A DNA stretch of 64,000 nucleotides from Eledone cirrhosa (Eukaryota), in contig CAXHJY010001010.1 of assembly GCA_964016885.1 (NCBI GenBank), positions 21,831-85,830 on the forward strand, read 5' to 3'. Below are positions 1,338 through 57,898 of the stretch, one piece after another. How positions within the stretch are numbered: the stretch's first letter is position 1; each line of letters begins with the position of its first letter. The notes below the pieces were generated by a model. The model was not told the DNA's origin, searched no databases, and was given only the letters and a program-made list of their open reading frames with translations. The translations under genes were made by a program, and so were the position numbers.

Positions 1338-1712
1338 TTAGGGAGAAGTGTTTAGACGGGGTCCGTATTTGTTAATAAAGTAAGATTCCTTGCTGATGCG
1401 CTGGGTGTGGGTGGCATTATCTTTAAATTTGTATAGGGGAAAGATTCTGAAGTTGGGATGATTTTGGGCGGCACAGGTATCAATGTGTTCACTCAGTGGT
1501 ATTTTCCTGTATTCCCGTATTTTACTTTTGGATCTATGGACAATCATGTGTTCGCGGTGGCTGTTTTTGGTCTGGCCTATGTATTGTTCTCGACAACCTG
1601 AGCAAGTTAATACATATATTATATTTTTGATGCGCATGTGAAATTGTGTTTTACTATAAAACGTTGTCCTTCTTTGAAATAGAATTGCGAACCCTCTATT
1701 AGGTTGATGCAT
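1338..1712 (-). pseudogene. Penelope GIY-YIG endonuclease fragment
   Basis: NIIYVLTCSGCREQYIGQT...ESYFI...LN is the Penelope GIY-YIG signature. Confidence 0.9.
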
Positions 1713-2164
1713 ATGCCACAGTTGGGTCTATCGCATTTTTTTTACTGTGGGTTCCGTTGTTGTGGTTGGCAGTACTTTGGCATGTGTTAGGATGTTTTTC
1801 ATTGACTTAGATTGTCTTTTGCTCTTTATGATATCGTGTGTTCGTAGGATTTGGTTCATTCTATGGTCATTTTTCAACACAGGGATGTTCTGGAGGATGG
1901 TGTCAAAGGCCTCATTGTTGAGGGGGTTGTGTGTGGAGATGTATGGAAGAGCTTTTAGTTTCGGTTGATTTACTTTAGGGTGTCTAAGGTCCTGGGTACT
2001 GAGTTTAGGGAACGTTGGATTCCATTGTCAATTAGTGATGCAGGGTAGTCCCTGCCTATGAGTGTGTCCTTTAGTTCTTGTAGCCGTAAATAGCAGGTGT
2101 TTTTATTGGAGACTATAGTACATATTCTCTTGGCTAAGTTGTAGGAATATTAATTTTAACGTGT

Positions 2165-3094
2165 CTAAGGTGGCAAGAGTTGAAAGGAAGATATTGCTTG
2201 GAGTCTGTGGGCTTGTAGTATATGTCTGTTTCTATTTTTTTTGTTATGGATCTTAATGAGGATGTCGCGGAAGGGGAGTTGTTGATGGCTGTATTCCATC
2301 GTGAAGTTAATATTCGTGTTGAGCCCATTTATAAGGGTGTGAAATTCTTTAAGTTTCTCGATGTTTTCGTGCCAAAGGATGAAGCAGTCATCTAGATATC
2401 GCTTCCTGTTCCTTTCTATGTGTAAGTGGAGAGTGTTTCCAAATTTGTTTAGTACTTTAGTGTAGAGGGTGATTTCCAGGTATCCCATGACTAGGTTGGG
2501 ATAAGTGGCGGCTGTTTTCGTTCCCATAGCGGTCCCAGATTTCTGTCTGTAGGGTTTGTTATTGAAAACGAAGTAATTGTTCTCCAAGATAAATTTGAGT
2601 CCCTCTATCACGAATTCTTTTCTGATGCGTTGTGGGAGTTCATTGTGGTAATTATCCAGCCAGAATTGGATAGCTTCTATTCCTAGGTTGTGGGGGATGT
2701 TGGAGTAGAGGTTGACTACATCGAACATCACTAGTAGGGTTTGTTCAGAAAGGGGCATATTAGGGAGGTGATTGAGCATATCTTGGTCGTCCCTTATATA
2801 GCTTTTGATGTGTTTGAGAAAAGGCTTGAGAAGGGTATCAATGAAGTTGCTAAGGCGGTGGGTTTCGCAAGCGGGGCCTGCTATTATAGGTCTTAATTTG
2901 AGATCATTGGATGAGGGGACATTGATGACTATGTCTGTGGCTTCCTTGCATGCCTTACTTATTAATTCGCTTTTATGTACTTTAGGGATACCGTAGAAAA
3001 GGCTGGATTTACTTGTGAAGTCTGTGATGAAGCTGAATTCCTTGTTAGTGAGTCCTTCTTTGTATTGGTTGATCAGAGTTTTTAGGTTTCTCAT
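2165..3094 (-). pseudogene. Penelope-type reverse transcriptase fragment
   Basis: Motifs FYGIPKVHK, LRPII, FDVVNLYSNI, QKSGTAMG, RYLDD; continues after a frameshift into TDIYYKPTDSKQYL..SCH (2134-2328). Confidence 0.92.
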
Positions 3095-3465
3095 AATTTT
3101 CTGTTGATTGTAGTGTTCAGCCTTTTCGTAGTGTTTCGTTTTCCAATGTGGAGAGCGCTAAGTTGATATAGAATTCTGTCTCCATTAGGACTACTGTACT
3201 CCCTTTATCAGCCTCTTTAATTGTAATGGTTCTGTCGGTTTTTAATCTATTTAATTCTTCCCATTCTTTCTTGTTGAGGTTTGGCTTGTGTTTTTGTCTG
3301 TGCAAGTGTTGGTAAGGGAAGTTTGCGATGTGTTCACAGAATTCGTCCAGGATTTTATTTCTACCTTTTGATGGGGTGTAATTGCTTCTATTTCTGGCTA
3401 ATGATTCATCCTCATTGTACTGGTCGAATAGTTCTTCACTGAGTCGTAACTTTCTACAGAAGTCT

Positions 3466-3510
<45 letters not shown>

Positions 3511-3513
<3 letters not shown>

Positions 3514-5791
3514 CGTGCTGTAGTTCTTGGAACTTATTCCTGATCCCTCTGATGTGCCTTAGTCTTGCAGGCTTGCGACAGCATATGGCCTCACGGTCTT
3601 ATTTGCTTTCTTCTTCTTCAACCTCAAGCGGATTTATCCAACCACGAGATGATGGTCAGATCCGACGTCTGCCCCTCGGTAGGTGCGAACATCCAAGAGA
3701 GAGAAACGCCACCTCATGCCAATACAGATATAATCAATCTCATTCCTGGTGTTGCCATCAGGGGAAGTCCATATCATCTTGTGAATCCGCCTATGGGCGA
3801 AGAATGATATAGTTATTGGTAGAAGAATGGGGACCAATCGGGAACAGTGGATCAGCAGTACTTTATGGAATGTCATTGACGAGAGGAATGATGTTAAGAA
3901 CAAAAGAGATCAAACCAAATCTCGACAGCAATGGAAGGAAGTGGACAAGGAGTACAGACGTCTTGACAAGGAAGTAAAGAAGAGCTGTCGAAAAGACAAG
4001 CGCCAGTGGTTAGAAGATCGGGCTGCAGAGGCACAAGTGGAAACAGATTGAAATGATTCCAAGACGCTGTACCGGATCGTGAGAGCTAACTGGTGGACGA
4101 AGTGGAAGCAGTTTGCCAATCAAGAGCAAAGATGCTCAGATGCTTGCAGCCATTGAAGAGCAGCCCCAGAGGTGGAACGAACACTTTCGTGAGGTCCTCA
4201 ATCAGCCATCACCCAACACAGGCTTCGAGCTTGTCTGGGAGGAAGCGAGCTACCGGCTGGATGTACAACTAGACGGCATCACAAGAGCTGAGGTGGCCAA
4301 GGCCATCCGCTCCCAAAAGAATAACAAAGCGGCAGGGCTGCATGAGATTCCTGCAGAGCTTCTGAAGCACGGCAAGAATGTAATAGAGGAGCAGCTCACC
4401 CATTTATGCAATGTGATTTGGCAAGAAGAGGAGGTGCCGGAGGACTGCGGAAATGGAGTGATTGTACCACTACCAAAGAAGGGCTGTCTCAGCGACTGCA
4501 ACAACTATAGAGGGATCACGTTGCTATCAGGGCCAGGGAAGGTATTCTGCACAGGCATCCTGAACCGGCTGAGAGCAGAAGTAGATCGTCATCTTCGAGA
4601 CGAACAGGCTGGCTTCCGCAGTGGAAGGTCTTGTTCAGAGCAGATCTTCACTCTCCGAAATATCATTGAACAATGTCGGGAGTTCCATAAGTTCCTTGTT
4701 GTCAACTACATTGACTTCAGGAAAGCTTTCGACAGTCGTCATCGGAAATCATTGTGGAAGATTGTAAGACTCTAGGGTGTCCTAGAGAAATATATTAACA
4801 TCTTCAGGTCGCTGTACCGACATTCCAGGTGCTGCGTTAGGACAAAGGACGGAAACACGGAAATGTTTGACATCTTGACGGGTGTTCGACAAGGCTGCAT
4901 CCTTTCGCCTTTCCTTTTCCTCATTGTCATCGATTTCATCATGAAGAAGACAATGAGTGACCCTCGTTTTGGCATCAGTTGGGATGGAAGGAAATTAAGC
5001 GACCTGGACTTTGCCGATGACATCGAAGTGATAGGCCATTCCCGAGAAGACCTGCAAGAGATGACAAACGTTCTAAATGACAATGCAAAGAAAGTTGGCC
5101 TGCGCATCAGTTATGAAAAAACCAAGACCATGTCGACAGGTGACCCTCCAAATCTTCCCATCATGGTTGGTCAGCGTAACATTGAATGTGTAAACCACTT
5201 CCAATACCTTCTGACGATGGGGATGCTGAGGTGGATGTGTGCACAAGGCTGGGAAAACAGCGGCGGTCTTCCAGCGACTCCGTCCGGTATGGTCCAGGTG
5301 TTCCATCGGCAACGCAGTCAAATTCCGTGTTTACATGTCCATTGTAGTACCAACAGCGATATATGTCTGTGAGACATGGAAAAGTACGAAAAGTGTATGT
5401 AACAAGCTTGATGTATTCCACCGTCATTGCATTCGGACCATATTGAATATTTCATGGTTAGACGAAGTTAGCAACGAGGAAGTGATGAGGAGGTCAGGAT
5501 TGGAGAGGTTAAGGGACATTGTCCGGAAAAGGAGACGGTGGTTCGTGGGCCACATCCTTCGTTTGCCGGCACATCGACCTGCTCATATTGCCATGGATTG
5601 GGTACCAGAACGTGGCAGGAGAGAACGGGGAAGACCACGAAAAACATGGCGGAGCACATTCAGGGAGGACCTGCGGGAGATGGGAATTACCTGGAGAGGT
5701 GCTAGAAGGGCCGCCAGTGACAGGATCAAGTGGAGGAAGCTCGTCGCTCAATGTTCCACAAGGGATTGGAGGAACTAAGATTAAGACTAAG
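3511..5791 (+). mobile_element. RTE-clade LINE, decayed, with an inverted 5' segment
   Basis: RT motifs NYRGITLLS, EQAGFR, IDFRKAFDS, GVRQGCILSP, DFADD; C-terminal GRPRKTW; short tandem tail (taagat/taagac) at ~5776-5791. About 3511-3815 encodes endonuclease C-terminus (WTSPDG..NEIDY..GADVGSDH) on the minus strand. Confidence 0.92.
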
Positions 5792-5803
5792 ATATATATA
5801 TAT

Positions 5804-6862
5804 AGTGGTGGAACACTGGAAGGTAATATCCGTAGTGGTAGAGAACTCCGTCCATGGAACGAGTTAGGTAGAAGTTGTTACACAACAGTTAGTTCACCAT
5901 ACCGAGAACAATTGTTTCACCTTAGCGGATCCTCAGCTCGGAATGAGCATGGTTATAGGAACAGAAAGGACAACCGTATGAACGCGCATGCGCAGAAACC
6001 CGGTCACTTCACACAGGCAATACTAGACTGCGTGCGAGAGGTGTAAGGGAGATAACTGCGAAAGTCCGAAAAGTTTTTAGGTTGAAAATAAAATTACAAA
6101 GAATCAGTCCGGAGCCTTGTAGTTATGCAATAGGTGTTTGGCGACGTGTGGACAACGTGTAAAATATTCATTTCTCGTATTTAGGCAATCACTATTGCGT
6201 AATCTCTTTAGAATAGTTATTCGTTCGTCAATACATAAGCCACACGTCGGATTTCCCCTTGCGTATGGCTTGGACTTAGTGATGGCTTTCCATTGAATGG
6301 AGTAGTCTATACTTGAGTCCTTGAGGGACCATACGTGGCTGAAGGTAGACTGGTGGTTCAGGAAACGTTCATTAAATCGTGCCTCCACCATGCCCACATA
6401 GGATTTGATCTCCTGTGGTTCGTTTGGTCGGTTGGAAGTGACGACAGCTTCATAAATTACAGCTGGTGTGTTGCATTGCTGTTGAAGCGGGTAAGCTTCA
6501 GGCTTACGGCAAGAGCACCCTGGTGGGGTGTTGCTCCTAGGGCTGCTGGTGATGTGGGCCTTCATGTTCTTAGCGCAGGAGTATCCTAGTTTAACTTTGT
6601 GTCGGTTAAAGAGGGATCGGTATTTATTACCTATGGGAAAATGTCTATCTAAGAGGGCTAGACATTTTTATCCTACATTGGTTTTAACGTTTAGTGAGAA
6701 GGGAGGAGAGAACCAGATAATTTGTCTATTGTTGCGCTTACTTTTCTTAATGGCGTTTTGCTAGAGGGAGAGTAAGTGTTAGGTTTTGAGAAGCCGCTGT
6801 TAGCCAAAGCCGTGTTATAGTAGGATGCCGCCCTGTCAAAGATAGCCTTATTAGAGGAAAGG
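5804..6862 (-). mobile_element. Penelope-like 3' fragment: GIY-YIG (6104-6565) plus pseudo-LTR with hammerhead
   Basis: ORF with CSC..PL..C..AVIYEA..SYVG..RFNERFLNH..CGLC..E..LN.R.E..CPH; ends at a TA run. Confidence 0.88.
5902..5941 (-). ncRNA. Type I hammerhead ribozyme motif
   Basis: Minus strand: ccgag-CUGAGGA-uccgcuaaggu-GAAA-caauug-UU-cucgg; 5-bp stem I, palindromic helix III ACAAUUGU, GUU site. Confidence 0.85.
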
Positions 6863-7360
6863 TATGTATGTATATATACACATACTACTGTACGTCTGTA
6901 TACATATATGTATGTACGTATACATACTTATATTTAAGTAATAGCCGTACTAAGAGTGAGAAATGAAATTTCGTTTCATTTTTTTCCATTTATCGTTTTA
7001 GGTGCTCCCGGCCGATTAACTCTCTCGATATGCAAATTAGGTTGCACAGCCGTTAATATACATAAGGAAAGTATATACTTTCAGACGTTCAATCATCTGG
7101 CAGGAAGGTATACGGTGCTGACGATAGCTAATAAGCTTGAAACTAGTACATCGTTCATTTGTCAGTGTTGAACAAAAGGTCAACGATGGTTGCTAAACAC
7201 TGTACGGCTTAATTCGGGATGTTTGTTTACAAACAAACCGAGCATTATAATAAATGTTCGGTGAATCCATACGTACATATTTATATGTGTGCATGTATGT
7301 ATATATATACATACTACTGTACGTCTGTATACATATATGTATGTACATATACATACATAT
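6863..7360 (+). mobile_element. Non-coding HHR element, family A (about 429-bp monomer plus terminal redundancy)
   Basis: catactactgtacgtctgtatacatatatgtatgtac occurs at 6881 and 7310; internal HHR; homologous to the units at 22-26.7 kb. Confidence 0.8.
7112..7154 (+). ncRNA. Type I hammerhead ribozyme motif (family A)
   Basis: acggug-CUGACGA-uagcuaauaagcuu-GAAA-cuag-UA-caucgu; palindrome ACUAGU, GUA site. Confidence 0.85.
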
Positions 7361-11121: not shown

Positions 11122-11955
11122 TTCATAGGTATATTTTAAACTTATAGCCTCGTTTAAATGATTTTTGTATGGTTGATTATGCTGATTGGGAGAAGAAATA
11201 CTGTATATAGTTTATCAAATGATTCTATGGACTTACTTTCTTATATATTGCACTGATAGTTGATTATTTAATTAATTAATTCGTCATTGAGCCACACCGT
11301 GAATGGTTGCCTAAAACATATATATATATATATCTATGGCTCTGTCTAGTTTGTGTATATACACTTTTAAATTTTATATACTCCCGTAAGGTTGAGTAAA
11401 ACTTTAGGCAGTATTCGGCTGCGCTTTCTGGCAACCAGCCTACTCGCTGACAGGCACCAATGACAAGCTTTCTTACTTGACCATTAGCCACGTGACAATT
11501 CTTAGCCATTTTGAATTCGTTTCTGGCGGTGAGCATTTAAGAAAAAATCTTTGTTCAATTGAGGTTGTCTCCTGATGATTTCGAAACTCGTTGATTTATC
11601 CAAGATCGGATATTTCCAAAAAGCGAATGAAACCTAGGCGGTAGAGGTATATTTAATGGTTTTGGTATGTTTATGTACACCTTTTCTTCTAACTTTGATT
11701 CTGTACCTAATTATATATGGTTAACTGTATGTCTAATCAATTTCTACAGGCTATCAGAAATATTAGGTAAATTTTCTGTGGCTGTGAATCGCGGATAAAA
11801 AGCTATCATTTATTTATCTATTATTCCTTCATAGGTATATTTTAAACTTATAGCCTCGTTTAAATGATTTTTTATATGGTTGATTATGCTGATTGGGAGA
11901 AGAAATACTGTATATATTTTATCTAATGATTCTATGGACTTACTTTCTTATATAT
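11122..11955. repeat. Non-coding unit bounded by ~125-bp direct repeats (period ~706 bp)
   Basis: ttcataggtatattttaaacttatagcc...ggacttactttcttatata at ~11122-11247 and ~11828-11955. Confidence 0.8.
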
Positions 11956-14378: not shown

Positions 14379-14534
14379 CAGGAAGACATGATATGAAGGT
14401 TTAAAACACTTGTGGATAGTGCAGTTTTAAATCAACATATGAAAAGTAGTTTTAGATTGATGTGTGGAATTGGGGAAAAAATTTGTTGAGGGGGGGGGGG
14501 GGGAGGATGAAAAAGAGGAGGAGATGAGAGTAAA

Positions 14535-15671
14535 ATGTGGAGGGGGAGGAGTATAATGAGGAAGGATAAGATAGGAGGAGAGATGGGTGATAGAGAGAGA
14601 GAGAAACACACAATGGAAAGCATCCAGCAAATAGCAAACTCCATCCACCAGAGCATTAGAGTTACTATAGACTACCCAAGTAAACACCCCAACCATCGAT
14701 TACATGTACTAGACACAGAGCTCTGGTTAGATACCATTAACAACAAAAAACAAATCCTCCATTCCCATTATGCCAAACCCATGACTTCCAAACATCTGAT
14801 CCACCGAAACTCGGCCGTGTCGGACCATACCCAAATCAACATACTGATTGCGGATTTGGTACGGGTGATGAGAAATGTGTCCCGCATGTGCAACCCCGAA
14901 GAACTAGAGAGACACATACAACACTTCATCCACCGTATGCAGTTCTCTGGCTACAATCAGAGAGATAAAATCAGAGTGTATAGAGGAGCCAGAACCAAAT
15001 GGGAAAAAATGGTAAATAATGACATAAATGGGACCTGCCCCTTGTATAGGAGCAAATTTTGGAATAGAATAGAAAGAACTAGGAACAAGGCTAATAGAAT
15101 AAACTCATGGTATGATAGCAATAAATACCAGAGTGTAATGTTCATCGATACAACCCCTAGAGGTGAATTAGCTTACAAATTTAGAAGGGCCCTAAATAGA
15201 CATAAACTCAATATTAAGATAGTAGAAAGACCAGGTACCTCCGTAAAAACACGTATTAGCAAGACATACCCTTTTCAAAGACCCTCATGTATAGATAAGA
15301 AATGTATAACCTGTAAAATAAGCCCACATATTAACTGTAAAACTAGAAATGTAGTGTATAGCATAAGATGTACTGAAGGACAATGTAGAGACAAAAATAT
15401 AGTGTACATAGGTGAGACAGCCCGTAGTGTAGGTGAACGGATAAATGAACACTGGCGAGACCTTCAAGATAATAAAGAATCATCTGTACTCTACCAACAT
15501 GCTAAAATAGTACACAAGGGTAAATTAGAGAACATAGAAATAAAAATAGAATCTACACACAGAAAAAACGCAATGGTTAGACAAATTACAGAGGCAATAA
15601 ACATAAAAGAATTACAACCAAAATTAAATAGAAAATATGAGTGGAACAGCAACATCACAACTTACAATTAA
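14535..15671 (+). CDS. Penelope-like ORF C-terminal part (RT thumb, Cys-rich linker, GIY-YIG), 5'-truncated but open
   Basis: LHVLDTEL, HYAKP, CIDKKCITC, CKTRNVVYSIRC..C..VYIGETARSVGERINEH..EA..I..PKLNRKYEW; the RT catalytic core is absent. Confidence 0.88.
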   Translation: MWRGRSIMRKDKIGGEMGDREREKHTMESIQQIANSIHQSIRVTIDYPSKHPNHRLHVLDTELWLDTINNKKQILHSHYAKPMTSKHLIHRNSAVSDHTQINILIADLVRVMRNVSRMCNPEELERHIQHFIHRMQFSGYNQRDKIRVYRGARTKWEKMVNNDINGTCPLYRSKFWNRIERTRNKANRINSWYDSNKYQSVMFIDTTPRGELAYKFRRALNRHKLNIKIVERPGTSVKTRISKTYPFQRPSCIDKKCITCKISPHINCKTRNVVYSIRCTEGQCRDKNIVYIGETARSVGERINEHWRDLQDNKESSVLYQHAKIVHKGKLENIEIKIESTHRKNAMVRQITEAINIKELQPKLNRKYEWNSNITTYN

Positions 15672-15871
15672 GGACAAGATGAAAACACACACACACATAG
15701 AACAAACAACCAACCAGTAACATGTAAATAAACAAATAAATAAATGAACATAAACACACACAGACACCCGGATGTGGCGCATGCGCAGACTGAGCACACA
15801 ACACACACACAGAAACAAAATGGCGTAGGACAGAACAAAAGAGAGGCACAGAAACAAAGAAAGGAATCCCC

Positions 15872-15916
15872 AGTCACTGAAGAGGTCACAGAGTGTGTGA
15901 CGAAAGAACTATGACT
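15872..15916 (+). ncRNA. Type I hammerhead motif in the 3' pseudo-LTR of the Penelope copy
   Basis: aguca-CUGAAGA-ggucacagagugugugac-GAAA-gaac-UA-ugacu. Confidence 0.82.
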
Positions 15917-16108
15917 ATATATAAAGAACTATCTGGTTGTGGAACCAACCAACCAACCAGAAATTTATAAATTTATTATAATAAATTGAAGTGAAAGCAA
16001 CTGGTGCGTGTGTTTCTTATTGGCAACATGACCCTCCCAAAGTATAACAATATCGGTTTCAACACACGATTTCAGATAAAGAATCTTGCTAAACAAATTC
16101 AGAAACGA

Positions 16109-16140
<32 letters not shown>

Positions 16141-18346: not shown

Positions 18347-21236
18347 TCCGAATTAGTGTGGTATAGACAAGTACATATGTTGCTGAGGTGTATAATATTG
18401 TCAATACTCTTATATGCCCAGTTCCTGGTTGGGTTGTTATTTCATTGAGGAACTAAAATAATATGAATTCAAACAAACGAATTTCAGTGTCAAAGGGCCT
18501 CTTCTCCTCTCATTGGTCAGTTGTTAGAACATTCCTCATTCTAAGTGTTGTTATTGTTGGAGTTAGCTTAAAAAATTGATAAAGTGGTAGAAGGGACAAG
18601 GTGTTAAAGGAACAAAATAACAAAAAAGGTGTCAAACTTCCCATTGGTCAGTTCTGAGAGCATTCCTCAGTCAGAAGTCTGTAGAATTATTTCTGGGGTG
18701 AGGCTCCCTGTAGTGTTTGTGTTTGCTATTGTTAAGTACATTTGACCTCTACCATTATTTTGGTAGTGTTGTTGGAGTTGTGGTCAGCTTATGTCTTGCC
18801 TCTGTTGACAATTTAGAAGTATCTGTGTGTGTGTTTCTTCATCTCTCCTGCCACCATCTCTCATAGTGGTGGTGGTGAGGGGGGGGGGGGGTTCTTCCAT
18901 GTATATGAAGAAATATAAGGCAATAAATGAAGTTGTATGATTTGAAAATAAATAATTAATAGAGAATAAAGAATAAATGAAAAATTGGTGAAAAAGTAAT
19001 GAAAATGAATATGGAGAAGTGAAAAATGAAATGAAGATTCAAATAAAGTAGGATAAAGTGTGTGTGTGCTATAACCAATCTCAAGGTCAGAAATATGTTG
19101 GATAGATTGGTATGAGGGACAAGATGTTAAAATAAGATAATCAAACAAAATGTGTTTGTGTAATAATCAATCTCAACTTAAAAATAAGGTGATACAGTGA
19201 AGAGGGCAGAAAACAAATAACAAATTAATAAAGAGAAAACAAGATTTAAAATTGGGACTTGAAAGTCAGAAATTAAGTAAATTAAAATGTGTTTGTGTTA
19301 TATAGATGTTGGCCAAATTATAATGGCTGTGTCCGATTCAATCACTAAGCTATCATGGTGTCTGCTCAGCCTGGGTTGTTCCCTGTGGCTTGAGGGTAGT
19401 TCACAACCTAGGGTATTTTTACTGCCCATATAGCTTGAGGGAGGTCTGGCTGAGAGGTGTTTACATGTTCAGTAGAAGTCCCTATAGCTTGAGGGGAGAT
19501 CACATCTTCTTGTGTTGCTACTATCCATATATATTAAGGAAGGTCCCGGCTCTAAGGTGTCTGCATGTTCCGAAGAATTCGGTTCTGAGGTTTATCAGGC
19601 TGCTTCCACCTCTTAGTATCTCGAAGGTCTCGTTCAGGCATAGTTTGCATATGCAAGATCCCCCTTTATCGGGTGGTACTTTCCTGATTATGTACCAGGC
19701 CAGAGAGTACGGGGTCCTGTCCAGCTTAAGCTTCCAGATCAGGTCGGAGAGAGCCATGCTTTTCCTTTTGGCCTCCTTATTGAATGAATGGCGATGGTTG
19801 TACCAGCTGTCTTTAAAGCTCGTTGATGTGGCTCCTATGTAGAGGTTTTCGGAGTTGGGGGTTTTAACCCTACAACCGTATACTAGGTTCTTCTTGAGGC
19901 ATTCATTACCAAGGGGGCATGATTCGGGGTTTCTGCAGTTGCAGAGAGTGGTCAACCTCTGCGTGCCTAGATTAGGGTTCCCGTTATGTGTTACATGTTG
20001 GTCTTCCCCCAGGCAAGGTGGGGGGTCCCCGGGTCTGTTTGGGTTTCTTGGGTGGGCTCTTGGTCCCCCCTTCCATCCTTTCACATGGTTCTGCTGAGTG
20101 TTTGTATTGCCATCTTCTGGTTGTGTCTGGTTTTTAAGCCTACTCCTGTTGATGCTAGCTATGTGTTGGGCCAGATTTCTCGTGGTGGAATACGAGAGCT
20201 TCACAGTGTGTCTATTGAAGATCCTGTGGTATCTGTGGTCCCTCGGGAAGCATTTATCAAGTGCTCCAAAGAATGATCGGGCCAAGCTGTTCTTTACTGC
20301 TATAACCAATCTCAAGGTCAGAAATATGTTGGATAGATTGGTATGAGGTACAAGCTGTTAAAATAAGATAATCAAACAAAATGTGTTTGTGTAATAATCA
20401 ATCTCAACTTAAAAATAAATATAAGGTGATACAGTACCAATCTATCCAACATATTTCTGACCTTGAGATTGGTTATAGCACACAGACACTTTATCCTACT
20501 TTATTTGAATCTTCATTTTATTTTTCACTTCTCCATATTCAGTTTCATTACTTTTTCAACAATTTTTCATTTATTCTTTATTCTTTATTCTCTATTTATT
20601 ATTTATTTTCAAATTATACAAATTATATTATTTATTTTCTGTTTTCTTCATTTATTGCCTTATATTTCTTCATATACATGGAATAACCCCCCCACCACCA
20701 CCACCACCACCACCACTATGAGAGATGGTGGCAGGAGAGATGAAGAAAAAACACACAAAGATACTTCTAAATTGTCAACAGAAGCAAGACATAAGCTGAC
20801 CATAACTCCAACAACACTACCAAAATAATGGTAGAGGTTAAATGTACTTAACAATAGCAAACACAAACACTACAGGGAGCCTCGCCCAAGAAAGAATTCT
20901 ATAGACTTCTGACTGAGGAATGCTCTCAGAACTGACCAATGGGAAGTTTGACACTTTTTTGTTATTTTGTTCCTTTAACACCTTGTCCCTTCTAACACTT
21001 TATCAATTTTTTAAGCTAACTCCAAAAATAACAACACTTAGAATGAGGAATGTTCTAACAACTGACCAATGGGAGGAGAAGGGGCCCTTTGACACTGAAA
21101 TTCGTTAGTTTGAATTCATATGATTCCAGTTCCTCAGTGGAATAACAACCCAACCAGGAACTGGGCATATAATAGTATTGACAATATTATACACCTCAAC
21201 AACATATGTACTTGTCTATACCACACTAATTCGAAA

Positions 21237-21986: not shown

Positions 21987-22485
21987 AATGGAAAAGAATG
22001 AAACGAAATTTCATTTCTCACTCTTAGTACGACTGATACTTAAATGTAAGTATGTATGAATACGTACATACATATATGTATACAGACGTACAGTAATATG
22101 TATATATATACATACATGCACACATATATATATATTTGTACGTACGGGTTTACCGAACATTTATTATAAAGTACGGTTTGTTTGTTTGTAAACAAACAAA
22201 CAGCCCGAATGACGCTTAAAGTTCGGTAAACCCATACGTACATATATATATGTTTGCATATACGCCTGTATACATATATGTATGTACATATACATACATA
22301 CTTACATTTAAGTATCAGCCGTACTAAGAGCGAGAAATGAAATTTCGTTTCATTCTTTTCCATTTATCGTTTTCGGTGAGCCCGGCCGACTAACTCACTC
22401 GATATGCAAATTAAGCTGCTCAGCCGTTAATATGCATGTGGAAAGTATATACTTTCAGACATTCAATCATCTGGCAGGAAGTTAT

Positions 22486-22528
22486 ACGATGCTGACGATA
22501 GCTAAAAAGCTTAAAACAAGTACATCGT
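22486..22528 (+). ncRNA. Family A hammerhead, mutated core
   Basis: GAAACUAGU is replaced by AAAACAAGU. Confidence 0.7.
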
Positions 22529-22780
22529 TCCTGTGTAAGTGTTGAACAAAAAGGCGACGAACACTGAACACTGAACACTGAACACTGTAGGGCTTAATTC
22601 GGGCTGTTTGTTTGTTTACAAACAAACAAACCGAACATTATAATAAATGTTCGGTAAACCCATACGTACATATATATATGTGCATCTATGTATATATATA
22701 CACTACTGTACGTCTGTATACATATATGTATGTACGTATATATACATACTTACACACACACACACGCACACACACACACA

Positions 22781-23441: not shown

Positions 23442-23491
23442 AGATTCTACAGGACTAGAACTGTTTCATTCTTTAGAAATCATCAGGAATT

Positions 23492-23492
<1 letters not shown>
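23442..23492 (-). ncRNA. Type I hammerhead in 135-bp mini-element (copy 1)
   Basis: Minus strand: aaauuc-CUGAUGA-uuucuaaagaau-GAAA-caguucuaguccug-UA-gaaucu. Confidence 0.85.
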
Positions 23493-23537
<45 letters not shown>

Positions 23538-23538
23538 C

Positions 23539-23597
<59 letters not shown>

Positions 23598-23709
23598 ATA
23601 TGTATATATATATATATGTATATATACGTTATTCCGGGTTGAATCGGAGGTAACCACAGTAAGTAAGGTACTCAGTACATTGCAGAGTATAAAAGTTTTA
23701 ATATAGATG

Positions 23710-23759
23710 AGATTCTACAGGACTAGAACTGTTTCATTCTTTAGAAATCATCAGGAATT

Positions 23760-23760
<1 letters not shown>
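23710..23760 (-). ncRNA. Mini-element hammerhead (copy 2)
   Basis: Same motif as copy 1. Confidence 0.85.
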
Positions 23761-23839
<79 letters not shown>

Positions 23840-23840
23840 C

Positions 23841-23886
<46 letters not shown>

Positions 23887-23893
23887 CATATAA

Positions 23894-23924
<31 letters not shown>

Positions 23925-23937
23925 TATATATATATAC

Positions 23938-23991
<54 letters not shown>

Positions 23992-24529
23992 ATATATATA
24001 TATATATATGTGTGTATATATATATATATATAAATGGAAAAGAATGAAACGAAATTTCATTTCTCAGTCTTAGTACGACTGATACTTAAATGTAAGTATG
24101 TATGAATACGTACATACATATATGTATACAAACGTACAGTAATATGTATATATATACATACATGCACACATATATATATTTGTACGTACGGGTTTACCGA
24201 ACATTTATTATAAAGTTCGGTTTGTTTGTTTGTAAACAAACAAACAGCCCGAATGACGCTTAAAGTTCGGTAAACCCATACGTACATATATATATGTTTG
24301 CATATACGCCTGTATACATATATGTATGTACATATACATACATACTTACATTTAAGTATCAGCCGTACTAAGAGCGAGAAATGAAATTTCGTTTCATTCT
24401 TTTCCATTTATCGTTTTCGGTGAGCCCGGCCGACTAACTCACTCGATATGCAAATTAAGCTGCTCAGCCGTTAATATGCATGTGGAAAGTATATACTTTC
24501 AGACATTCAATCATCTGGCAGGAAGTTAT

Positions 24530-24572
24530 ACGATGCTGACGATAGCTAAAAAGCTTGAAACTAGTACATCGT
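24530..24572 (+). ncRNA. Family A hammerhead motif
   Basis: acgaug-CUGACGA-uagcuaaaaagcuu-GAAA-cuag-UA-caucgu. Confidence 0.87.
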
Positions 24573-24785
24573 TCATGTGTAAGTGTTGAACAAAAAGGCG
24601 ACGATGGTTGCCTGAACACTGTAGGGCTTAATTCGGGCTGTTTGTTTGTTTACAAACAAACAAACCGAACATTATAATAAATGTTCGGTAAACCCATACG
24701 TACATATATATATGTGTGCATCTATGTATATATATACACTACTGTACGTCTGTATACATATATGTATGTACGTATAAATACATAC

Positions 24786-24876
<91 letters not shown>

Positions 24877-25271
24877 CGGCTGGAGAGAAATGAAGCAAGT
24901 ATGCTCCGTTGGATGTGTAATGTCAATGTGCGTGAACGACCAAGCATAGACGAGATGAGAAAGAAACTGGGTATAAGAGGGATAAGTTGTGGTGTGCAGG
25001 AAAGAAGGCTGAGATGGTATGGACATGTGATATGCATGGAGCATCACCGCTGGTTAAAGGCGTGCGAAGAAATCCCAGTAGAAGGAAGACGCAGTAGATG
25101 TAGGCCACGTAAAGCATGGGCGGAGGTGGTGAACCCAGACCTCAGATCGCTGTAACTCAACGAGGAGAGGACGAAGGCCCCTGACAAGTGGAGTGCTACT
25201 GTGCTGAATAGGACCCGTCCAACCCTTGTAAGCAGGGAAAAGCGGATATAAAATGATGATGATGATGATAC

Positions 25272-25312
<41 letters not shown>

Positions 25313-25315
25313 ATG

Positions 25316-25346
<31 letters not shown>

Positions 25347-25347
25347 G

Positions 25348-25395
<48 letters not shown>

Positions 25396-25477
25396 GTTAT
25401 TCCGGGTTGAATCGGAGGTAACCACAGTAAGTAAGGTACTCAATACATTGCAGAGTATAAAAGTTTTAATATAGATG

Positions 25478-25527
25478 AGATTCTACAGGACTAGAACTGT
25501 TTCATTCTTTAGAAATCATCAGGAATT

Positions 25528-25528
<1 letters not shown>
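25478..25528 (-). ncRNA. Mini-element hammerhead (copy 3)
   Basis: Same motif as copy 1. Confidence 0.85.
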
Positions 25529-25625
<97 letters not shown>

Positions 25626-25737
25626 ATATGTATATATATATATATGTATATATACGTTATTCCGGGTTGAATCGGAGGTAACCACAGTAAGTAAGGTACT
25701 CAGTACATCGCAGAGTATAAAAGTTTTAATATAGATG

Positions 25738-25787
25738 AGATTCTACAGGACTAGAACTGTTTCATTCTTTAGAAATCATCAGGAATT

Positions 25788-25788
<1 letters not shown>
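25738..25788 (-). ncRNA. Mini-element hammerhead (copy 4)
   Basis: Same motif as copy 1. Confidence 0.85.
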
Positions 25789-25833
<45 letters not shown>

Positions 25834-25834
25834 C

Positions 25835-25884
<50 letters not shown>

Positions 25885-25891
25885 CATATAA

Positions 25892-25922
<31 letters not shown>

Positions 25923-25935
25923 TATATATATATAC

Positions 25936-25995
<60 letters not shown>

Positions 25996-26506
25996 ATATA
26001 TATATATATATAAATGGAAAAGAATGAAACGAAATTTCATTTCTCAGTCTTAGTACGACTGATACTTAAATGTAAGTATGTATGAATACGTACATACATA
26101 TATGTATACAAACGTACAGTAATATGTATATATATACATACATGCACACATATATATATTTGTACGTACGGGTTTACCGAACATTTATTATAAAGTTCGG
26201 TTTGTTTGTTTGTAAACAAACAAACAGCCCGAATGACGCTTAAAGTTCGGTAAACCCATACGTACATATATATATGTTTGCATCGCCTGTATACATATAT
26301 GTATGTACATATACATACATACTTACATTTAAGTATCAGCCGTACTAAGAGCGAGAAATGAAATTTCGTTTCATTCTTTTCCATTTATCGTTTTCGGTGA
26401 GCCCGGCCGACTAACTCACTCGATATGCAAATTAAGCTGCTCAGCCGTTAATATGCATGTGGAAAGTATATACTTTCAGACATTCAATCATCTGGCAGGA
26501 AGTTAT

Positions 26507-26549
26507 ACGATGCTGACGATAGCTAAAAAGCTTGAAACTAGTACATCGT
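26507..26549 (+). ncRNA. Family A hammerhead motif
   Basis: Identical to 24530-24572. Confidence 0.87.
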
Positions 26550-26760
26550 TCATGTGTAAGTGTTGAACAAAAAGGCGACGATGGTTGCCTGAACACTGTA
26601 CGGCGTAATTCGGGCTGTTTGTTTGTTTACAAACAAACAAACCGAACATTATAATAAATGTTCGGTAAACCCATACGTACATATATATGTGTGCATCTAT
26701 GTATATATATACACTACTGTACGTCTGTATACATATATGTATGTACGTATAAATACATAC

Positions 26761-26861
<101 letters not shown>

Positions 26862-27256
26862 CGGCTGGAGAGAAATGAAGCAAGTATGCTCCGTTGGATG
26901 TGTAATGTCAATGTGCGTGAACGACCAAGCATAGACGAGATGAGAAAGAAACTGGGTATAAGAGGGATAAGTTGTGGTGTGCAGGAAAGAAGGCTGAGAT
27001 GGTATGGACATGTGATATGCATGGAGCATCACCGCTGGTTAAAGGCGTGCGAAGAAATCCCAGTAGAAGGAAGACGCAGTAGATGTAGGCCACGTAAAGC
27101 ATGGGCGGAGGTGGTGAACCCAGACCTCAGATCGCTGTAACTCAACGAGGAGAGGACGAAGGCCCCTGACAAGTGGAGTGCTACTGTGCTGAATAGGACC
27201 CGTCCAACCCTTGTAAGCAGGGAAAAGCGGATATAAAATGATGATGATGATGATAC

Positions 27257-27325
<69 letters not shown>

Positions 27326-27439
27326 ATATGTATATATATATATATATGTATATATACGTTATTCCGGGTTGAATCGGAGGTAACCACAGTAAGTAAGGTA
27401 CTCAGTACATTGCAGAGTATAAAAGTTATAATATAGATG

Positions 27440-27490
27440 AGATTCTACAGGACTAGAACTGTTTCATTCTTTAGAAATCATCAGGAATTT
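27440..27490 (-). ncRNA. Mini-element hammerhead (copy 5)
   Basis: Same motif as copy 1. Confidence 0.85.
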
Positions 27491-52319: not shown

Positions 52320-52409
52320 GTCCTATGCGGGCAAGACAACCACTCTTGCCTCAAGTGGGAAAACCCCCGTCCAAACCCATGCAAGCGTGGAACACGGACG
52401 CTAAACCTT

Positions 52410-52441
<32 letters not shown>

Positions 52442-52610
52442 ATAACGAAACGAAATGTAATTTCGTTTCTGTATTTGTTTTTATCGTCTCCGTTGAACCG
52501 GTACGTACTCACACTCTATGCAAATTAGTCTGCCCACTACTAATATTCATAGAAAAAGCATATAACGATATGTGCTTTTACGATTCTCCAGAAAGGCCGG
52601 AAGATAGGTA

Positions 52611-52655
52611 AATATTGCTGATGAGTTGTAACAACAACGAAACTAGTTCAATATT
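52611..52655 (+). ncRNA. Family B hammerhead, unit 1
   Basis: aauauug-CUGAUGA-guug-uaacaa-caac-GAAA-cuag-UU-caauauu. Confidence 0.9.
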
Positions 52656-53076
52656 CCTTGTCTGGCTTTCTGGAGAATAGAGGAAAGGTGTTTCCTCAAA
52701 AACCAGTATGACTCTAAAAACCGGTTTGTCTGTGTGTTTACATACAGAATAGCTGGATACTCACAGTAAAGTGACCAGTGAAAAACTTGGTACATCTACA
52801 TATGTATACGTGTGTGTGTTCATATGCATACTAGTATTTCAGTATACATATGTGGATGTACATTTTTAACTTAATTGTTTAAGCGTCAGTCATACAAAAG
52901 TGAGTTACAAACGAAACGAAATGTAATTTCGTTTCGTTATTTGTTTTTATCGTCTCCGTTGAACCGGTACGTACTCACACTCTATGCAAATTAGTCTGCC
53001 CACTACTAATTTTCATAGAAAAAGCATATAACGATATGTGCTTTTACGATTCTCCAGAAAGGCCGGAAGATAGGTA

Positions 53077-53121
53077 AATATTGCTGATGAGTTGTAACAA
53101 CAACGAAACTAGTTCAATATT
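53077..53121 (+). ncRNA. Family B hammerhead, unit 2
   Basis: Identical to unit 1. Confidence 0.9.
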
Positions 53122-53542
53122 CCTTGTCTGGCTTTGTGGAGAATAGAGGAAAGGTGTTTCCTCAAAAACCAGTATGACTCTAAAAACCGGTTTGTCTGTG
53201 TGTTTACATACAGAATAGCTGGATACTCACAGTAAAGTGACCAGTGAAAAACTTGGTACATCTACATATGTATACGTGTGTGTATTCATATGCATACTAG
53301 TATTTCAGTATACATATGTGGATGTACATTTTTAACTTAATTGTTTAAGCGTCAGTCATACAAAAGTGAGTTACAAACGAAACGAAATGTAATTTCGATT
53401 CGTTATTTGTTTTTATCGTCTCCGTTGAACCGGTACGTACTCACACTCTATGCAAATTAGTCTGCCCACTACTAATTTTCATAGAAAAAGCATATAACGA
53501 TATGTGCTTTTACGATTCTCCAGAAAGGCCGGAAGATAGGTA

Positions 53543-53587
53543 AATATTGCTGATGAGATGTAACAACAACGAAACTAGTTCAATATT
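53543..53587 (+). ncRNA. Family B hammerhead, unit 3
   Basis: One stem II mismatch (gaug for guug). Confidence 0.85.
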
Positions 53588-53875
53588 CCTTGTCTGGCTT
53601 TCTGGAGAATAGAGGAAAGGTGTTTCCTCAAAAACCAGTATGACTCTAAAAACCGGTTTGTCTGTGTGTTTACATACAGAATAGCTGGACACTCACAGTA
53701 AAGTGACCAGTGAAAAACTTGGTACATCTACATATGTATACGTGTGTGTATTCATATGCATACTAGTATTTCAGTATACATATGTGGATGTACATTTTTA
53801 ACTTAATTGTTTAAGCGTCAGTCATACAAAAGTGAGTTACAAACGAAACGAAATGTAATTTCGTTTCGTTATTTG

Positions 53876-53924
<49 letters not shown>

Positions 53925-53926
<2 letters not shown>

Positions 53927-54561
53927 CATCATCATCATCACCATCATTTGACGTCCGTGTTCCACGCTTGCATGGGTTTGGATGGGGGTATTCCCACTTG
54001 AGGCAAGAGTGATTGTCTTGCTCGCATAGGACTGTCTGGCAGGTTTTCTACAGTTGGATGCCCTTCCTAACACCAACCACATTTACAGTGTGGGTCTGGG
54101 AGGTTTTTACCGTGTTGCCTGCACGGCCACATTACAGCGTGGACTGTGTGTTTTTTTGTTGTGACACCTACACGATCTCATTTGTTTCGGCCTGGATGGT
54201 GTGGCACCAACATAACTTTACATAGGAGGGGGTGGTGTGGATGGGGTGGGGGTGGTGGGACGGGGGTGTATTTTGTTAGAGATGCCTACTGGCTGTAGTA
54301 GGTTTTACTATGTATTTAGGTAAGGCGGGTCTTCTCTATTACTGAGTACCGCCAAAGGTCTCGGTCCAGTGACATTGTCTTGGAGAGGTGTAAGTGTGTG
54401 AGGTCGGAGTTTATCAGCTCGTCCCAGGTTTTTCTAGGTCTGCCTATTCCGTGGCTACCGTCTATCTTTATTGCCCTGCACTTTGTTATACAGCTATCGA
54501 CTTTCATGCGCATCACGTGTCCATACCAACGTAGCCTTCTCTCGAGTAAACAACATCTGAT

Positions 54562-54615: not shown

Positions 54616-57600
54616 ATAAATTTTTATGACCATGCTGTAAAATGGAGGGGTAGAGAGGGCCCTTGAGTCTAGTAAGACATCCTCTCTAGTGCTGGTGGCA
54701 CAGTCCATGCTGTAAAGTGGCGCTGGTGTTAGGAAGGGCATCCAACCAGTGTATCATAGCCAAAACGCTTATCAGCACAGCAACAAATAGGAACAACAAA
54801 ATATGAAGACGTCGCATCTCAGAGTTTCAACACTTAATGTTGGCACTCTCAGAGGTAGATCTGCTGAAATAGCGGAGATGCTGGAAAGAAGGCAGGTGGA
54901 TATGTGCTGCGTGCAAGAGGTGAGATGGAGAGGTGCCTCTGCGAGACTAGTCGTAGGCAAACGTCTTAGCTATAAGCTATTCTAGGTAGGTAAGGATGAT
55001 GGGTTAGGGGAAGTAGGCATTTTCCTGGTTGAGAAATGGATCAATAAGACAATAGAGGTAGTTCGAGTTAGTAATCGAATAATTAAGCTTAGATTAGTTG
55101 TAGGTAGGAGACTACTGACAATCATCGCGGCCTATGCTCCCCAAGCAGGCCTAGGCAAAGATGAGAAAGAATGCTTTTATGAGCAACTTTTGCAAACAAC
55201 CGCAATGACAGAGGACGGAGACATCAATATGCTAGCAGGAGACTTCAATGGTCATGTTGGAAAGCTCCAGGATGGTTACACTGGGGTACATGGTGGGTAC
55301 GGTTACAGTTCAAGAAATGAAGAAGGAGTGAAACTTCTTGAATTTTGTGATGCAGGTACATTGACTATTTGCAACACAAACTTCCAGAAACCTGCCAATC
55401 ACCTAATAACCTACAAATCTGGTGAACACATAAGCCAGATTTACTTCTTACTAGTTAGGCAGTGGGACAGGTAGATAGTGTGTAATACCAAGGCATACCC
55501 TGGGGAAGAATGTACCCCACAGCATAGGTTAGTTGTTAGTGATATCTCAGTAAGCAAGAGATGGAATGAGACATATAGGAAGGTGTGGAGAAGAAAGGTC
55601 TGGAAGCTAAAAGACCTTTCACTAAAATACAAATTTAGGATAGCCCTTCTACATGTATATGACGAAAAAGAAGACGATTTAGAGACGTATGACAGAGATA
55701 ATAACTGGAATTTCTTACGTGACAACTTGCTGCAGGCTACTGATGAAACTTGTGGCTGGGGCAGAGCTCCAACCAGATAGGGAGTGACCTGGTGGTGGAA
55801 CAGCACAGTAGATAAGGCTATTAGAGACAAAAGACTAGCATGGAAAGCTTGGAAAAAGGGTGGGAGTAGGGAAGAATATACAGCCATTAAGAGAGAAGCT
55901 AGACGTCAAGTGCACTTAGCACGCAGGAAGGCAGAGAGTAGGAGGTTTGCCAATGGTCTGCGACGGGAAGATCAGAGGCGTGCGGTGTTCCACATTGCAA
56001 GGCAGTGTGTCAATGCAAATCAGGATGTTGTTGGAGATAAATGTGTCCGGGATGATGCCGGTGTACTTAGTGTCACGAATGATCAGAAAAAGGAGGCCTG
56101 GAAAAGTCATTAGGGAGACTGATGAATGTGGAGAACAAATGGGAGAGAGAGAAATTACCCTTGGTAGATCCGACAGAGGGACCAGCTATTGAGATTGACG
56201 AATATAGGGTCCAAGAGGCGATTAGGGAAATGAAAAATGGTAAGGCTGCCGGACCATCGGGAATAGTTGCTGAGATGCTGAAGGCATCAGGGGACGTAGG
56301 CACTAAACTGGTTGCACGCATCATCAATCAGGCTATATATGGTGGTGTCATACCCAAAGACTGGTGCAGCAATATTCTCATAAATTGCTACAAAGGTAAA
56401 GGGGATGCTCTGGAGAGGAGCAATTATAGGGGTATAAAACTGATAGATCAGGTTATGAAAGTGGCAGAAAGGATTTTAGCACAACTAATTAGAGAAAGGG
56501 TCAAACCAGATGAGATGCAGTTTGGTTTTGTGCCTGGGAAGAGTACAACAGATGCCCTCTTCTTGGTGAGACAATTACAAGAGAGGTTCTTAGAGAAGAA
56601 TAAGCCACTATACTTAGCCTTTGTTGACCTAGAGAAGGCCTTTGATAGGGTACCCCAATCTGTCATCTGGTGGTCCCTAAGGAAGCTAGGTGTTGAGGAA
56701 TGGCTTGTGAGGACAGTGCAAACTTTGTACAGAGGTACTCTCAGTAAAGTCAGGGTAGGAATGGAGTTTAGTGAGGAATTCCAGATACAAGTATGAGTAC
56801 ATCAGGGTTCAGTCCTCAGCCCGCTCTTGTTCATTATAGTCCTCCAAGCCATAACAGAGGAGTTTAAGACTGGCTGTCCATGGGAACTTTTCTATGCTGA
56901 CGATCTGGTTCTTATAGCAGAATCAGTAGAGGAGCTAGAGAATAAATTCAGGCTATGGAAACAGCAGTTGGAAGCAAGAGGACTGAGAGTGAATCTAGCT
57001 AAGACAAAAGTGTTGATGAGTAGAAAAGAGGACAAAACCATGAATCCGTCAAGGAAATGGCCATGTTCGATATGCAGAAAAGGAACTGGCATAAATTCTA
57101 TAAAATGCACATAATGCAGATCCTGGGTACACAAGAGATGTAGCGCGATAGCAGGCAAACTAACAGGTAAGGAAAAATATGTATGCAGTAGATGTACAGG
57201 GAAATTAGACAGTAGAAGTCGCATTGATAGACACATTTTTCAAATACAGGAGGGCGCTATAGAAGTGGTGGATAGCTTCCAGTACCTAGGAGATCAGATT
57301 AGCATGGGAGGAGGGTGTTCCGAGGCCATAGTATCTAGAATAAGGACGGGTTGGAAGAAGTTTAGGGAGCTGCTTCCTCTGTTGACGAAGAAGGGTTTTT
57401 CCCTGCGTACGAAAGGCCGGTTGTATGATGCCTGTGTGAGGAGCGCGATGCTGCATGGTAGTGAGACATGGGCAGCAACTGCAGAGGATATGCGACGGCT
57501 GGAGAGAAATGAAGCAAGCATGCTCCGTTGGATGTGCAGTGTAAGTGTGCGTGAACGACCCAGCATAAACGTTTTGAGAGAGAAACTGTGTCTGAGAGGG

Positions 57601-57898
57601 ATAGAATGTAGTGTACGGGAGAGGAGACTGAGGTGGTATGGACATGTGATGCGCATGGAGGATGACCGATGGGTGAAGAAGTGCCAGGAAATGCCAGTTG
57701 AAGGAAGACGTGGTAGAGGTAGACCACGAAAAACATGGGCGGAGGTGGTGAGAACAGACCTCAGATCATTGAAGCTCATGGTGGTGGAGATGACGAAGGA
57801 GCATGACGAGTGGAGAGATGCTGTGCTGAATAAGACCCATCCCACCCTTGCAAGCAGGGAAAAGCAGACGTAAAATGATGATGATGGTGGTGATGATG

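Follow-up and report, generated by a model that had tools for sequence, protein, structure and literature searches.

Metazoan non-LTR retrozymes, as described for coral, mussel, axolotl and newt satellite 2 (Cervera and de la Pena 2020, PMC7229834), are tandem repeats without an open reading frame (ORF) in which each unit carries one type I hammerhead ribozyme; they are low in GC, have strongly self-paired monomers and range from dimers to long multimers. Their repeats measure 150-450 bp and their RNAs 170-400 nt, helix III is short and palindromic in those amphibian retrozymes that need dimers, and Penelope-like elements (PLEs) are called a 'strong candidate' for their mobiliser in the same paper. 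A more recent study treats retrozymes as non-autonomous PLEs, based on co-occurrence and pseudo-LTR (pLTR) homology in 35 genomes, none of them from a mollusc (10.64898/2026.07.22.740005). For PLEs, it has been reported that the protein cuts both strands of AT-rich DNA and that the reverse transcriptase (RT) starts at two internal sites, the interval between which is the genomic 'tail' (PMC11167929), and an inverted 5'-truncated PLE arm has been described as well (10.1101/2021.04.23.441226). The family that we report here from Eledone cirrhosa shares with metazoan retrozymes the tandem units without ORF, the single type I hammerhead per unit, the low GC, the strongly self-paired monomer and the range from dimers to long multimers, and with the amphibian ones the short palindromic helix III. 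Its unit of 466-470 nt is longer, and circles, which have been demonstrated for the retrozymes of PMC7229834, are for this family a prediction. In the parts of that paper cited here, we found no description of a two-end tail or of inverted arms for retrozymes.

The window, by which we mean the whole stretch of 64,000 nucleotides that was analysed, contains at 52444-53841 three tandem units of 466 bp that are 98.5-99% identical, followed by a 38-nt end piece that runs into (TA)n. TRF reported a period of 466 with 3.1 copies and 98% matches at 52444-53882, and the units differ pairwise by 5, 7 and 4 bases, which bears out the three near-identical tandem units that a sequence-only reading of this DNA had noticed. 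The features of the insertion and its borders are as follows.

52320-52436, + strand: left flank, the 3' end of a LINE with an (ATG)n tail, which we take to be RTE-like from its C-terminal motif; outside the element
52437-52443, - strand: inverted arm of minimal length that turns back at the terminal palindrome; 52437-52469 matches q4-q36
52444-52909, + strand: unit 1, 466 bp, register q1-q466
52515-52528, + strand: octamer-containing motif, 14 nt identical to the -80 region of one U6 gene (E 0.004)
52583-52678, + strand: long hairpin that extends helix I, q140-q235
52611-52655, + strand: hammerhead 1, minimal type I, predicted cleavage after GUU at 52648
52873-52881, + strand: second fixed end E1, q430-q438, within a 5-bp hairpin
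52910-53375, + strand: unit 2, query for the genome searches and reference for the q1-q466 numbering
53077-53121, + strand: hammerhead 2, predicted cleavage after 53114
53376-53841, + strand: unit 3
53543-53587, + strand: hammerhead 3, helix II interrupted by an A-A mismatch at 53558, predicted cleavage after 53580
53842-53879, + strand: terminal piece q1-q38, a 13-bp hairpin plus a U-rich linker, ending at fixed end E2
53880-53926, no strand: (TA)n target microsatellite

The terminal piece, whose E2 end is joined to the (TA)n via about 3 nt of microhomology, is the 38-bp overhang of the sequence-only reading; the overhang is indeed present, but instead of a leftover it is a terminus that is fixed throughout the family, and we infer that E2 is an RT start site. 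The array had also been placed too far to the left, at 52437, since 52437-52443 is the tiny inverted arm and not unit sequence. As this arm sits at the terminal palindrome, both outer ends of the insertion are E2-type, and the window insertion departs from the usual form in that its second arm, folded back at the palindrome, amounts to a few bases. E1 is not an outer end here but internal, while in most other insertions it is the terminus of the opposite arm. The units are short tandem repeats without ORF, and apart from the units themselves no direct repeats are present at the termini; the longest ORF starting with ATG is 19 aa in sense and 50 aa in antisense, so that the description as ORF-less stands in the sense that no ORF exceeds 50 aa. 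The insertion lies between two RTE-like 3' ends arranged tail to tail (52320-52436 and 53927-54560), an arrangement that is repeated at another locus (L083) with (ATG)n on both sides, and a near full-length RTE-like LINE, with endonuclease and RT frames interrupted by stops, is located at 54755-57873 (+).

All three hammerheads have a helix I of 7 bp, a helix II of 5 bp and a helix III of 2 bp with a UA loop, giving the palindrome ACUAGU. One such type I ribozyme per unit had been recognised before, although the helix II mismatch of unit 3 (53558) had gone unmentioned, and the long hairpin around the hammerhead was found at 52583-52678 as expected. Running the array against Rfam, as the sequence-only reading had proposed, gave nothing that reached gathering score, but below it all three hammerheads matched Hammerhead_HH9 (RF02275, cut-off 52 bits) with 32.6-37.7 bits and E-values of 1.6e-7 to 6.7e-6. 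The cut-to-cut monomer is predicted to fold at -164 kcal/mol (z -11.8; 0 of 100 shuffles were equally stable) and the circular monomer at -159.7, compared to a mean of -93.4 for 20 shuffles. For the dimer, the predicted double-hammerhead fold reaches -201.4 kcal/mol versus -187.2 kcal/mol for two single folds, and in such models the long hairpin would pair across units in a multimer and present a double hammerhead.

Hammerhead cleavage triplets follow the NUH rule. At the cleavage base, position 17, family B ribozymes have C in 3,130 copies, U in 6,025 and a purine (A or G) in 10, thus C or U in 9,155 of 9,165, and a sister family, called A, has the triplet GUA, i.e. an A at position 17. Between lineages, both sides have changed in 4 of 10 pairs of helix I and in 3 of 5 pairs of helix II; since these comparisons comprise about three independent lineages only (B1, B2 and A), the covariation backs the fold rather than providing a formal test of it. 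Judged from these sequence patterns, covarying helices and a strict non-G cleavage base, the ribozyme is under constraint. Most family B copies carry the triplet GUU, and GUU is a weaker hammerhead triplet than GUC. Weak cleavage in vitro has been reported for minimal PLE hammerheads (PMC4209133), and 8 of 9 Xenopus retrozyme dimers showed no cleavage (10.64898/2026.07.22.740005).

In the 3.0-Gb genome, the unit gave 197 matches at 94-100% from the 40 of 660 candidates that were scored, and the exact ribozyme pattern matched 9,311 times, compared to 0 for the reversed control. The arrays range from less than one unit to at least 31 units, which answers the question of copy number and tandem state that had been raised. 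There is a 469-bp subfamily that is 88% alike to the 466-bp unit. B1 pieces deviate on average by 1.4% from the column yardstick (202 pieces), indicating that this family is young, in agreement with the recent activity suggested from the near-identity of the units. The ribozyme pattern of sister family A matched 16,948 times, and family A is present in the window too. It aligns to family B along the whole unit, with a mean column identity of 71% over 12 units, and this homology over the whole unit indicates that both have evolved for a long time as a closed unit. Family A copies contain an AT-microsatellite-like hairpin of variable length. These copies and the autonomous PLEs of the window are located as follows.

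1338-3533, - strand: very young PLE family with a 784-aa RT + GIY-YIG frame (loci L141, L142)
6104-6667 and 19521-20357, - strand: two more GIY-YIG PLE families (loci L222-L260)
6860-7350, 21990-22740, 24040-24770 and 26020-26750: family A copies with a GUA ribozyme
14511-16110, + strand: Neptune-like PLE, truncated at its 5' side, whose pLTR has a hammerhead at 15877 (loci L143-L145)

The last three family A copies of the window lie within a local 2-kb triplication, with spacings of 2052 and 1985. Elsewhere in the genome, a 19-unit family B array (L031/L032, G000:C1:375634780-375643976) shows higher-order repeats with a period of 3 and then 4, and in a family A array (L202-L207) the units alternate 484/502/494. 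Other small hammerhead-like motifs with a palindromic helix III occur in the window at 11572 and 23486-27484, and a further TA-targeted repeat end recurs in the flanks of L018, L022, L028, L057, L199 and L208. These may belong to more PLE or retrozyme families.

The ends of the insertions are what connects the family to PLEs. In a set of 138 arms, 127 of the 133 closed 3' ends fall at E1 or E2, 54 at E1 (q430-439) and 73 at E2 (q36-44), and the interval between the two, corresponding to the PLE 'tail', measures about 67-71 nt. A TA repeat lies directly next to nearly all of these fixed ends (123 of 127), and in 44 of 50 head-to-head insertions one arm terminates at E1 and its partner at E2. 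The first loci of this set had been picked by full-length or ribozyme matches; when 59 loci were picked solely for an E2 ending, 41 turned out to be inverted, with E1 on the opposite arm in 38 of the 41. Genome-wide, the junction of E2 with TA occurs 2,190 times, compared to 1 for a mid-unit control, and the E1 pattern gave 944 forward matches and 1,828 reverse matches, the latter including overlaps. Two insertions outside microsatellites (L037, L045) are flanked by target duplications of 9-12 bp, as scored by eye. The corresponding two ends of family A are separated by 58-59 nt, and an equivalent pair of ends on (TA)n was found in three of the genome's autonomous PLE families. The two fixed ends, the inverted arms, the (TA)n targets and the match with PLE chemistry lead to a strong inference of mobilisation by a PLE enzyme, and from these genomic signatures we consider such mobilisation very probable. 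Copying by a Penelope RT, which the sequence-only reading had postulated, has thereby gained support, and its assignment of the array to tandem retroelements of the non-LTR retrozyme type agrees with all features that can be read from the sequence.

Four PLE families of the genome were compared with the unit: the Neptune-like family, the family with the 784-aa RVT_1 + GIY-YIG frame and the two further GIY-YIG families, clade labels such as Neptune-like being our assumption based on motifs. The Neptune-like family gave 41,643 first-look candidates, with open frames of up to 1,261 aa, and its copies end on (TA)n at two fixed sites with about 59 nt between them; a 1,238-aa frame of this family had no Pfam match, and its RT is similar to that of the 784-aa family with an E-value of 2e-14. 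In the latter family (L141, L142), the 784-aa frame is preceded by an overlapping 455-aa frame, tandems of 4.7-4.8 kb occur, and no hammerhead pattern was found. The two other GIY-YIG families each have a pLTR hammerhead and two TA-abutting ends, with tails of about 66 and 97 nt. None of the four showed significant similarity to the unit, and a parent among them was rejected, the matches being either short chance matches or neighbouring family A copies. The units could nevertheless be solo or tandem pLTRs shed by an autonomous PLE other than these, given that our comparison covered four PLE families of this genome only, that hammerhead, tail and inverted arms are all pLTR features, and that among 57 Xenopus retrozyme families 24 correspond to elements already annotated, with few exceptions as PLEs (10.64898/2026.07.22.740005). 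We regard this as quite improbable, as in every multi-unit arm the units follow each other directly, at a period of 461-470 bp, the whole-unit homology of families A and B implies long evolution as a closed unit, and a PLE ORF in sense at the junction was found in 0 of 40 5'-facing flanks (151 loci), where four tblastn matches to PLEs were either distant or antisense. An RT + GIY-YIG ORF between repeats was absent as well in the copies sampled, and in these copies the family is not simply a pLTR; that the unit might occur only as the pLTR of an annotated Penelope element, a scenario that the sequence-only reading had set against its own proposal, is thus not borne out by the copies sampled. 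We give hardly any credence to an ordinary satellite that is spread by DNA recombination and carries the ribozyme motif by chance or as a fossil. Arrays of at least 31 units, some with higher-order repeats, would suit a satellite, but a satellite would not account for short insertions that are dispersed in their thousands, end at two exact sites and show 5' truncation, inversion and target duplication, nor for the covariation and the strict non-G rule at the cleavage base, and the fixed ends, with 2,190 junctions versus 1 in the control, contradict it.

As for the RNA template, 46 of 59 end-anchored arms extend beyond the cleavage site, 21 of them running through two such sites, only 3 of 133 5' ends fall at the cleavage site (q201-208, p 0.40), and this site has zero indels in 206 pieces. 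A cut linear monomer was rejected as the main template because there is no pile-up of 5' ends at the cleavage site and arms cross it, which leaves a circle or an uncut multimer. A mild excess of 5' ends at q200-230 (16 of 133, p 0.016, post hoc) may reflect stalling in the long hairpin, and another 16 5' ends, at q1, are spurious, having been produced by short pieces that escaped detection. In 58 two-armed insertions, 76 variants are common to all units of both arms, 20 of which are locus-private (in 12 loci), 42 are common to some units within one arm, 23 occur in some units across arms (13 loci), several of these in n-1 of n units, and 371 are confined to a single unit. One insertion (L158, G000:C1:30831600-30840870) has 20 pieces over both arms with zero single-unit changes. 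Most insertions thus have one haplotype on both arms, which fits one unit that is read repeatedly, as in a circle, and from these variant patterns we put the chance that the template was a circle at better than even, and not higher; homogeneous units would be equally expected if the transcripts were linear and came from very young arrays, or if local duplication were fast. Alternatively, the template of this non-autonomous PLE passenger may have been an uncleaved linear multimer, the hammerhead only trimming or regulating the RNA and the arrays growing later by DNA-level duplication. The precedent is an anole PLE that in vitro uses unprocessed RNA as its main substrate and does not need hammerhead cleavage (PMC11167929), and the 23 partial cross-arm variants in 13 of 58 loci, the prevalence of GUU among B copies, the local reshuffling in the 19-unit array (period 3-4) and the mosaic arrays L033, L034 and L146 point in the same direction. 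However, units cannot be gained during insertion by a linear route, which should also place unit-specific variants on both arms, yet only 23 are of this kind, compared to 76 variants found in all units and 371 in single units. Loci such as L158 and L400, in which both arms contain many identical units, would moreover need two independent expansions prior to mutation, and the ribozyme has remained intact, with compensatory changes, between families that are about 70% alike. On balance, we find a linear multimer unlikely, although it is a serious contender.

We therefore favour, as the likely explanation, a young, high-copy and protein-free non-LTR retrozyme, i.e. a non-autonomous PLE, which an autonomous PLE copies into (TA)n by means of its RT/GIY-YIG protein, the template probably being a circular monomer RNA. 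Read-through transcription of an array would yield a multimer, in which neighbouring hammerheads are predicted, from fold and covariation, to pair via ACUAGU into a double hammerhead and to cut after GUU or GUC, releasing a 466-nt monomer. A host ligase would close the monomer, and by analogy with PMC7229834 the ribozyme core would be misfolded and quiet in the circle. The PLE protein would then nick both strands of AT-rich DNA, and cDNA synthesis would start at E1 (q430-438) and E2 (q38); the fixed ends and their pairing are observed, and their interpretation as RT starts follows PMC11167929. Each cDNA may round the template up to many units, and two cDNAs joined 5' to 5' would give the head-to-head arms, the arms being observed and the rolling presumed. 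Long arrays would later be reshaped by local unequal exchange, as the higher-order repeats that are present suggest. More tentatively, and although we think it rather unlikely, families A and B could represent an old, self-contained lineage of circular-RNA parasites that did not arise as shed pLTRs, mimic the PLE tail by structure alone, are rolled out from both nicks as head-to-head multimers and have single-circle ADAR changes fixed in every unit. If true, the about 26,000 ribozyme copies would document, within the genome, Penelope rolling-circle reverse transcription.

Sense A>G changes among the all-unit variants outnumbered T>C changes by 23:5 in a first sample and by 25:3 in a second, and single-unit variants and the ORFs of two autonomous PLEs showed no A>G bias. 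In a third sample, the 59 end-anchored loci that had been set beforehand as replication, the ratio was 22:19, and 5:5 for private variants. Pooled private variants gave 20:5, with about 9 of the 20 from one locus (L352), which has 9 A>G changes among 22 all-unit differences. An ADAR footprint was rejected as support for an RNA monomer because the bias failed in the preset sample, and it is kept as a weak lead; selection on G-U wobble pairs could be the source of the skew. In L158, three A>G changes within 6 nt remove the octamer. The octamer motif at 52515-52528 is kept in family A and is also one arm of a conserved hairpin, and a TATA-like box follows it 42-43 nt downstream in the unit versus 46-47 in U6. 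A U6-type promoter was not adopted and is kept as a lead, since this comparison was post hoc, the motif doubles as part of a hairpin, Pol III would be stopped by T5 runs ahead of the second ribozyme and L158 lacks the octamer. BLAST of the U2 upstream regions gave no convincing match to the unit, and no octamer was seen when viewing the U1 upstream regions. In the U6 genes (L176, L177, L178), a motif resembling the octamer is located at -76 to -78 and a TATA box around -30, and U2 (L161, L163) and U6 have in common a CT-rich motif near -260.

Of 24 sequencing runs listed as containing the unit, none is an RNA run, which carries no weight for or against expression. The contigs of run X1 contain the unit at very high depth with TA loose ends at E1/E2, as expected of genomic DNA. 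Runs of about 15 other organism labels carry the unit at a word share of 0.17-0.69; X4 and X10 each gave one looped contig of 495-496 nt, at depths of 4.5 and 9.7, and X5 gave 18 fragments of the unit. The loops were not counted in favour of circles or horizontal transfer, because tandem arrays also collapse to a loop and the low depth fits carry-over, and trace carry-over of a high-copy repeat is the likelier explanation for the unit in other organisms' runs than transfer.

The class to which this family belongs has already been described, and by the characters that genomic data can reveal the family itself is a newly found non-LTR retrozyme. Experimentally, the class is defined by cleavage and circles, both of which are predictions for this family. 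In the literature on retrozymes, on cephalopod Penelope and SINE elements and on editing, we found no description of it, and repeat libraries (Dfam, Repbase) or supplements may list it under another name; the main text of PMC13282606 contains neither 'ribozyme' nor 'retrozyme'. Li, Clavereau and Pollet (2026, 10.64898/2026.07.22.740005) describe the same class with a proposed PLE partner, and our unit falls within their size range of 51-972 bp. Their study leans to local pLTR amplification, whereas we found no pLTR homology to the four PLE families compared, and the copies with two arms and several units have the appearance of having been produced directly by retrotransposition.

With the autonomous EN+ PLEs Poseidon_Ac (Frangieh 2024, PMC11167929), Penelope, Neptune and Naiad (Craig 2021, 10.1101/2021.04.23.441226), the family shares two RT starts that bound a tail downstream of the hammerhead, as well as partial tandems, an inverted 5'-truncated arm and AT-rich or (TA)n targets. 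It differs from them in the absence of an ORF, in a tail of about 67-71 nt compared to their 30-40 nt, and in the location of this tail, which is a non-coding hairpin region here and the start of the ORF in EN+ PLEs. The ribozyme has the core, the palindromic 15.2-16.2 and the loop 3 of minimal PLE hammerheads (Cervera and de la Pena 2014, PMC4209133) and Hammerhead_HH9. Family B has the G10.1-C11.1 pair of minimal PLE hammerheads, whereas family A closes helix II with U-U, and compared to Hammerhead_HH9 the best score, 37.7 bits, stays below 52 and GUU is the commonest triplet in B. A 466-nt template, thousands of young copies and autonomous PLEs with long ORFs in the same genome make up a small, defined test system, suited to tests of circular versus linear templates and of PLE trans-recognition. 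The findings bear on two open questions, how animal retrozymes move and how PLEs make tandem and inverted copies: where the retrozyme papers, in the parts cited here, offer co-occurrence and pLTR homology only, the PLE tail and the paired inverted arms tie a retrozyme directly to PLE chemistry.
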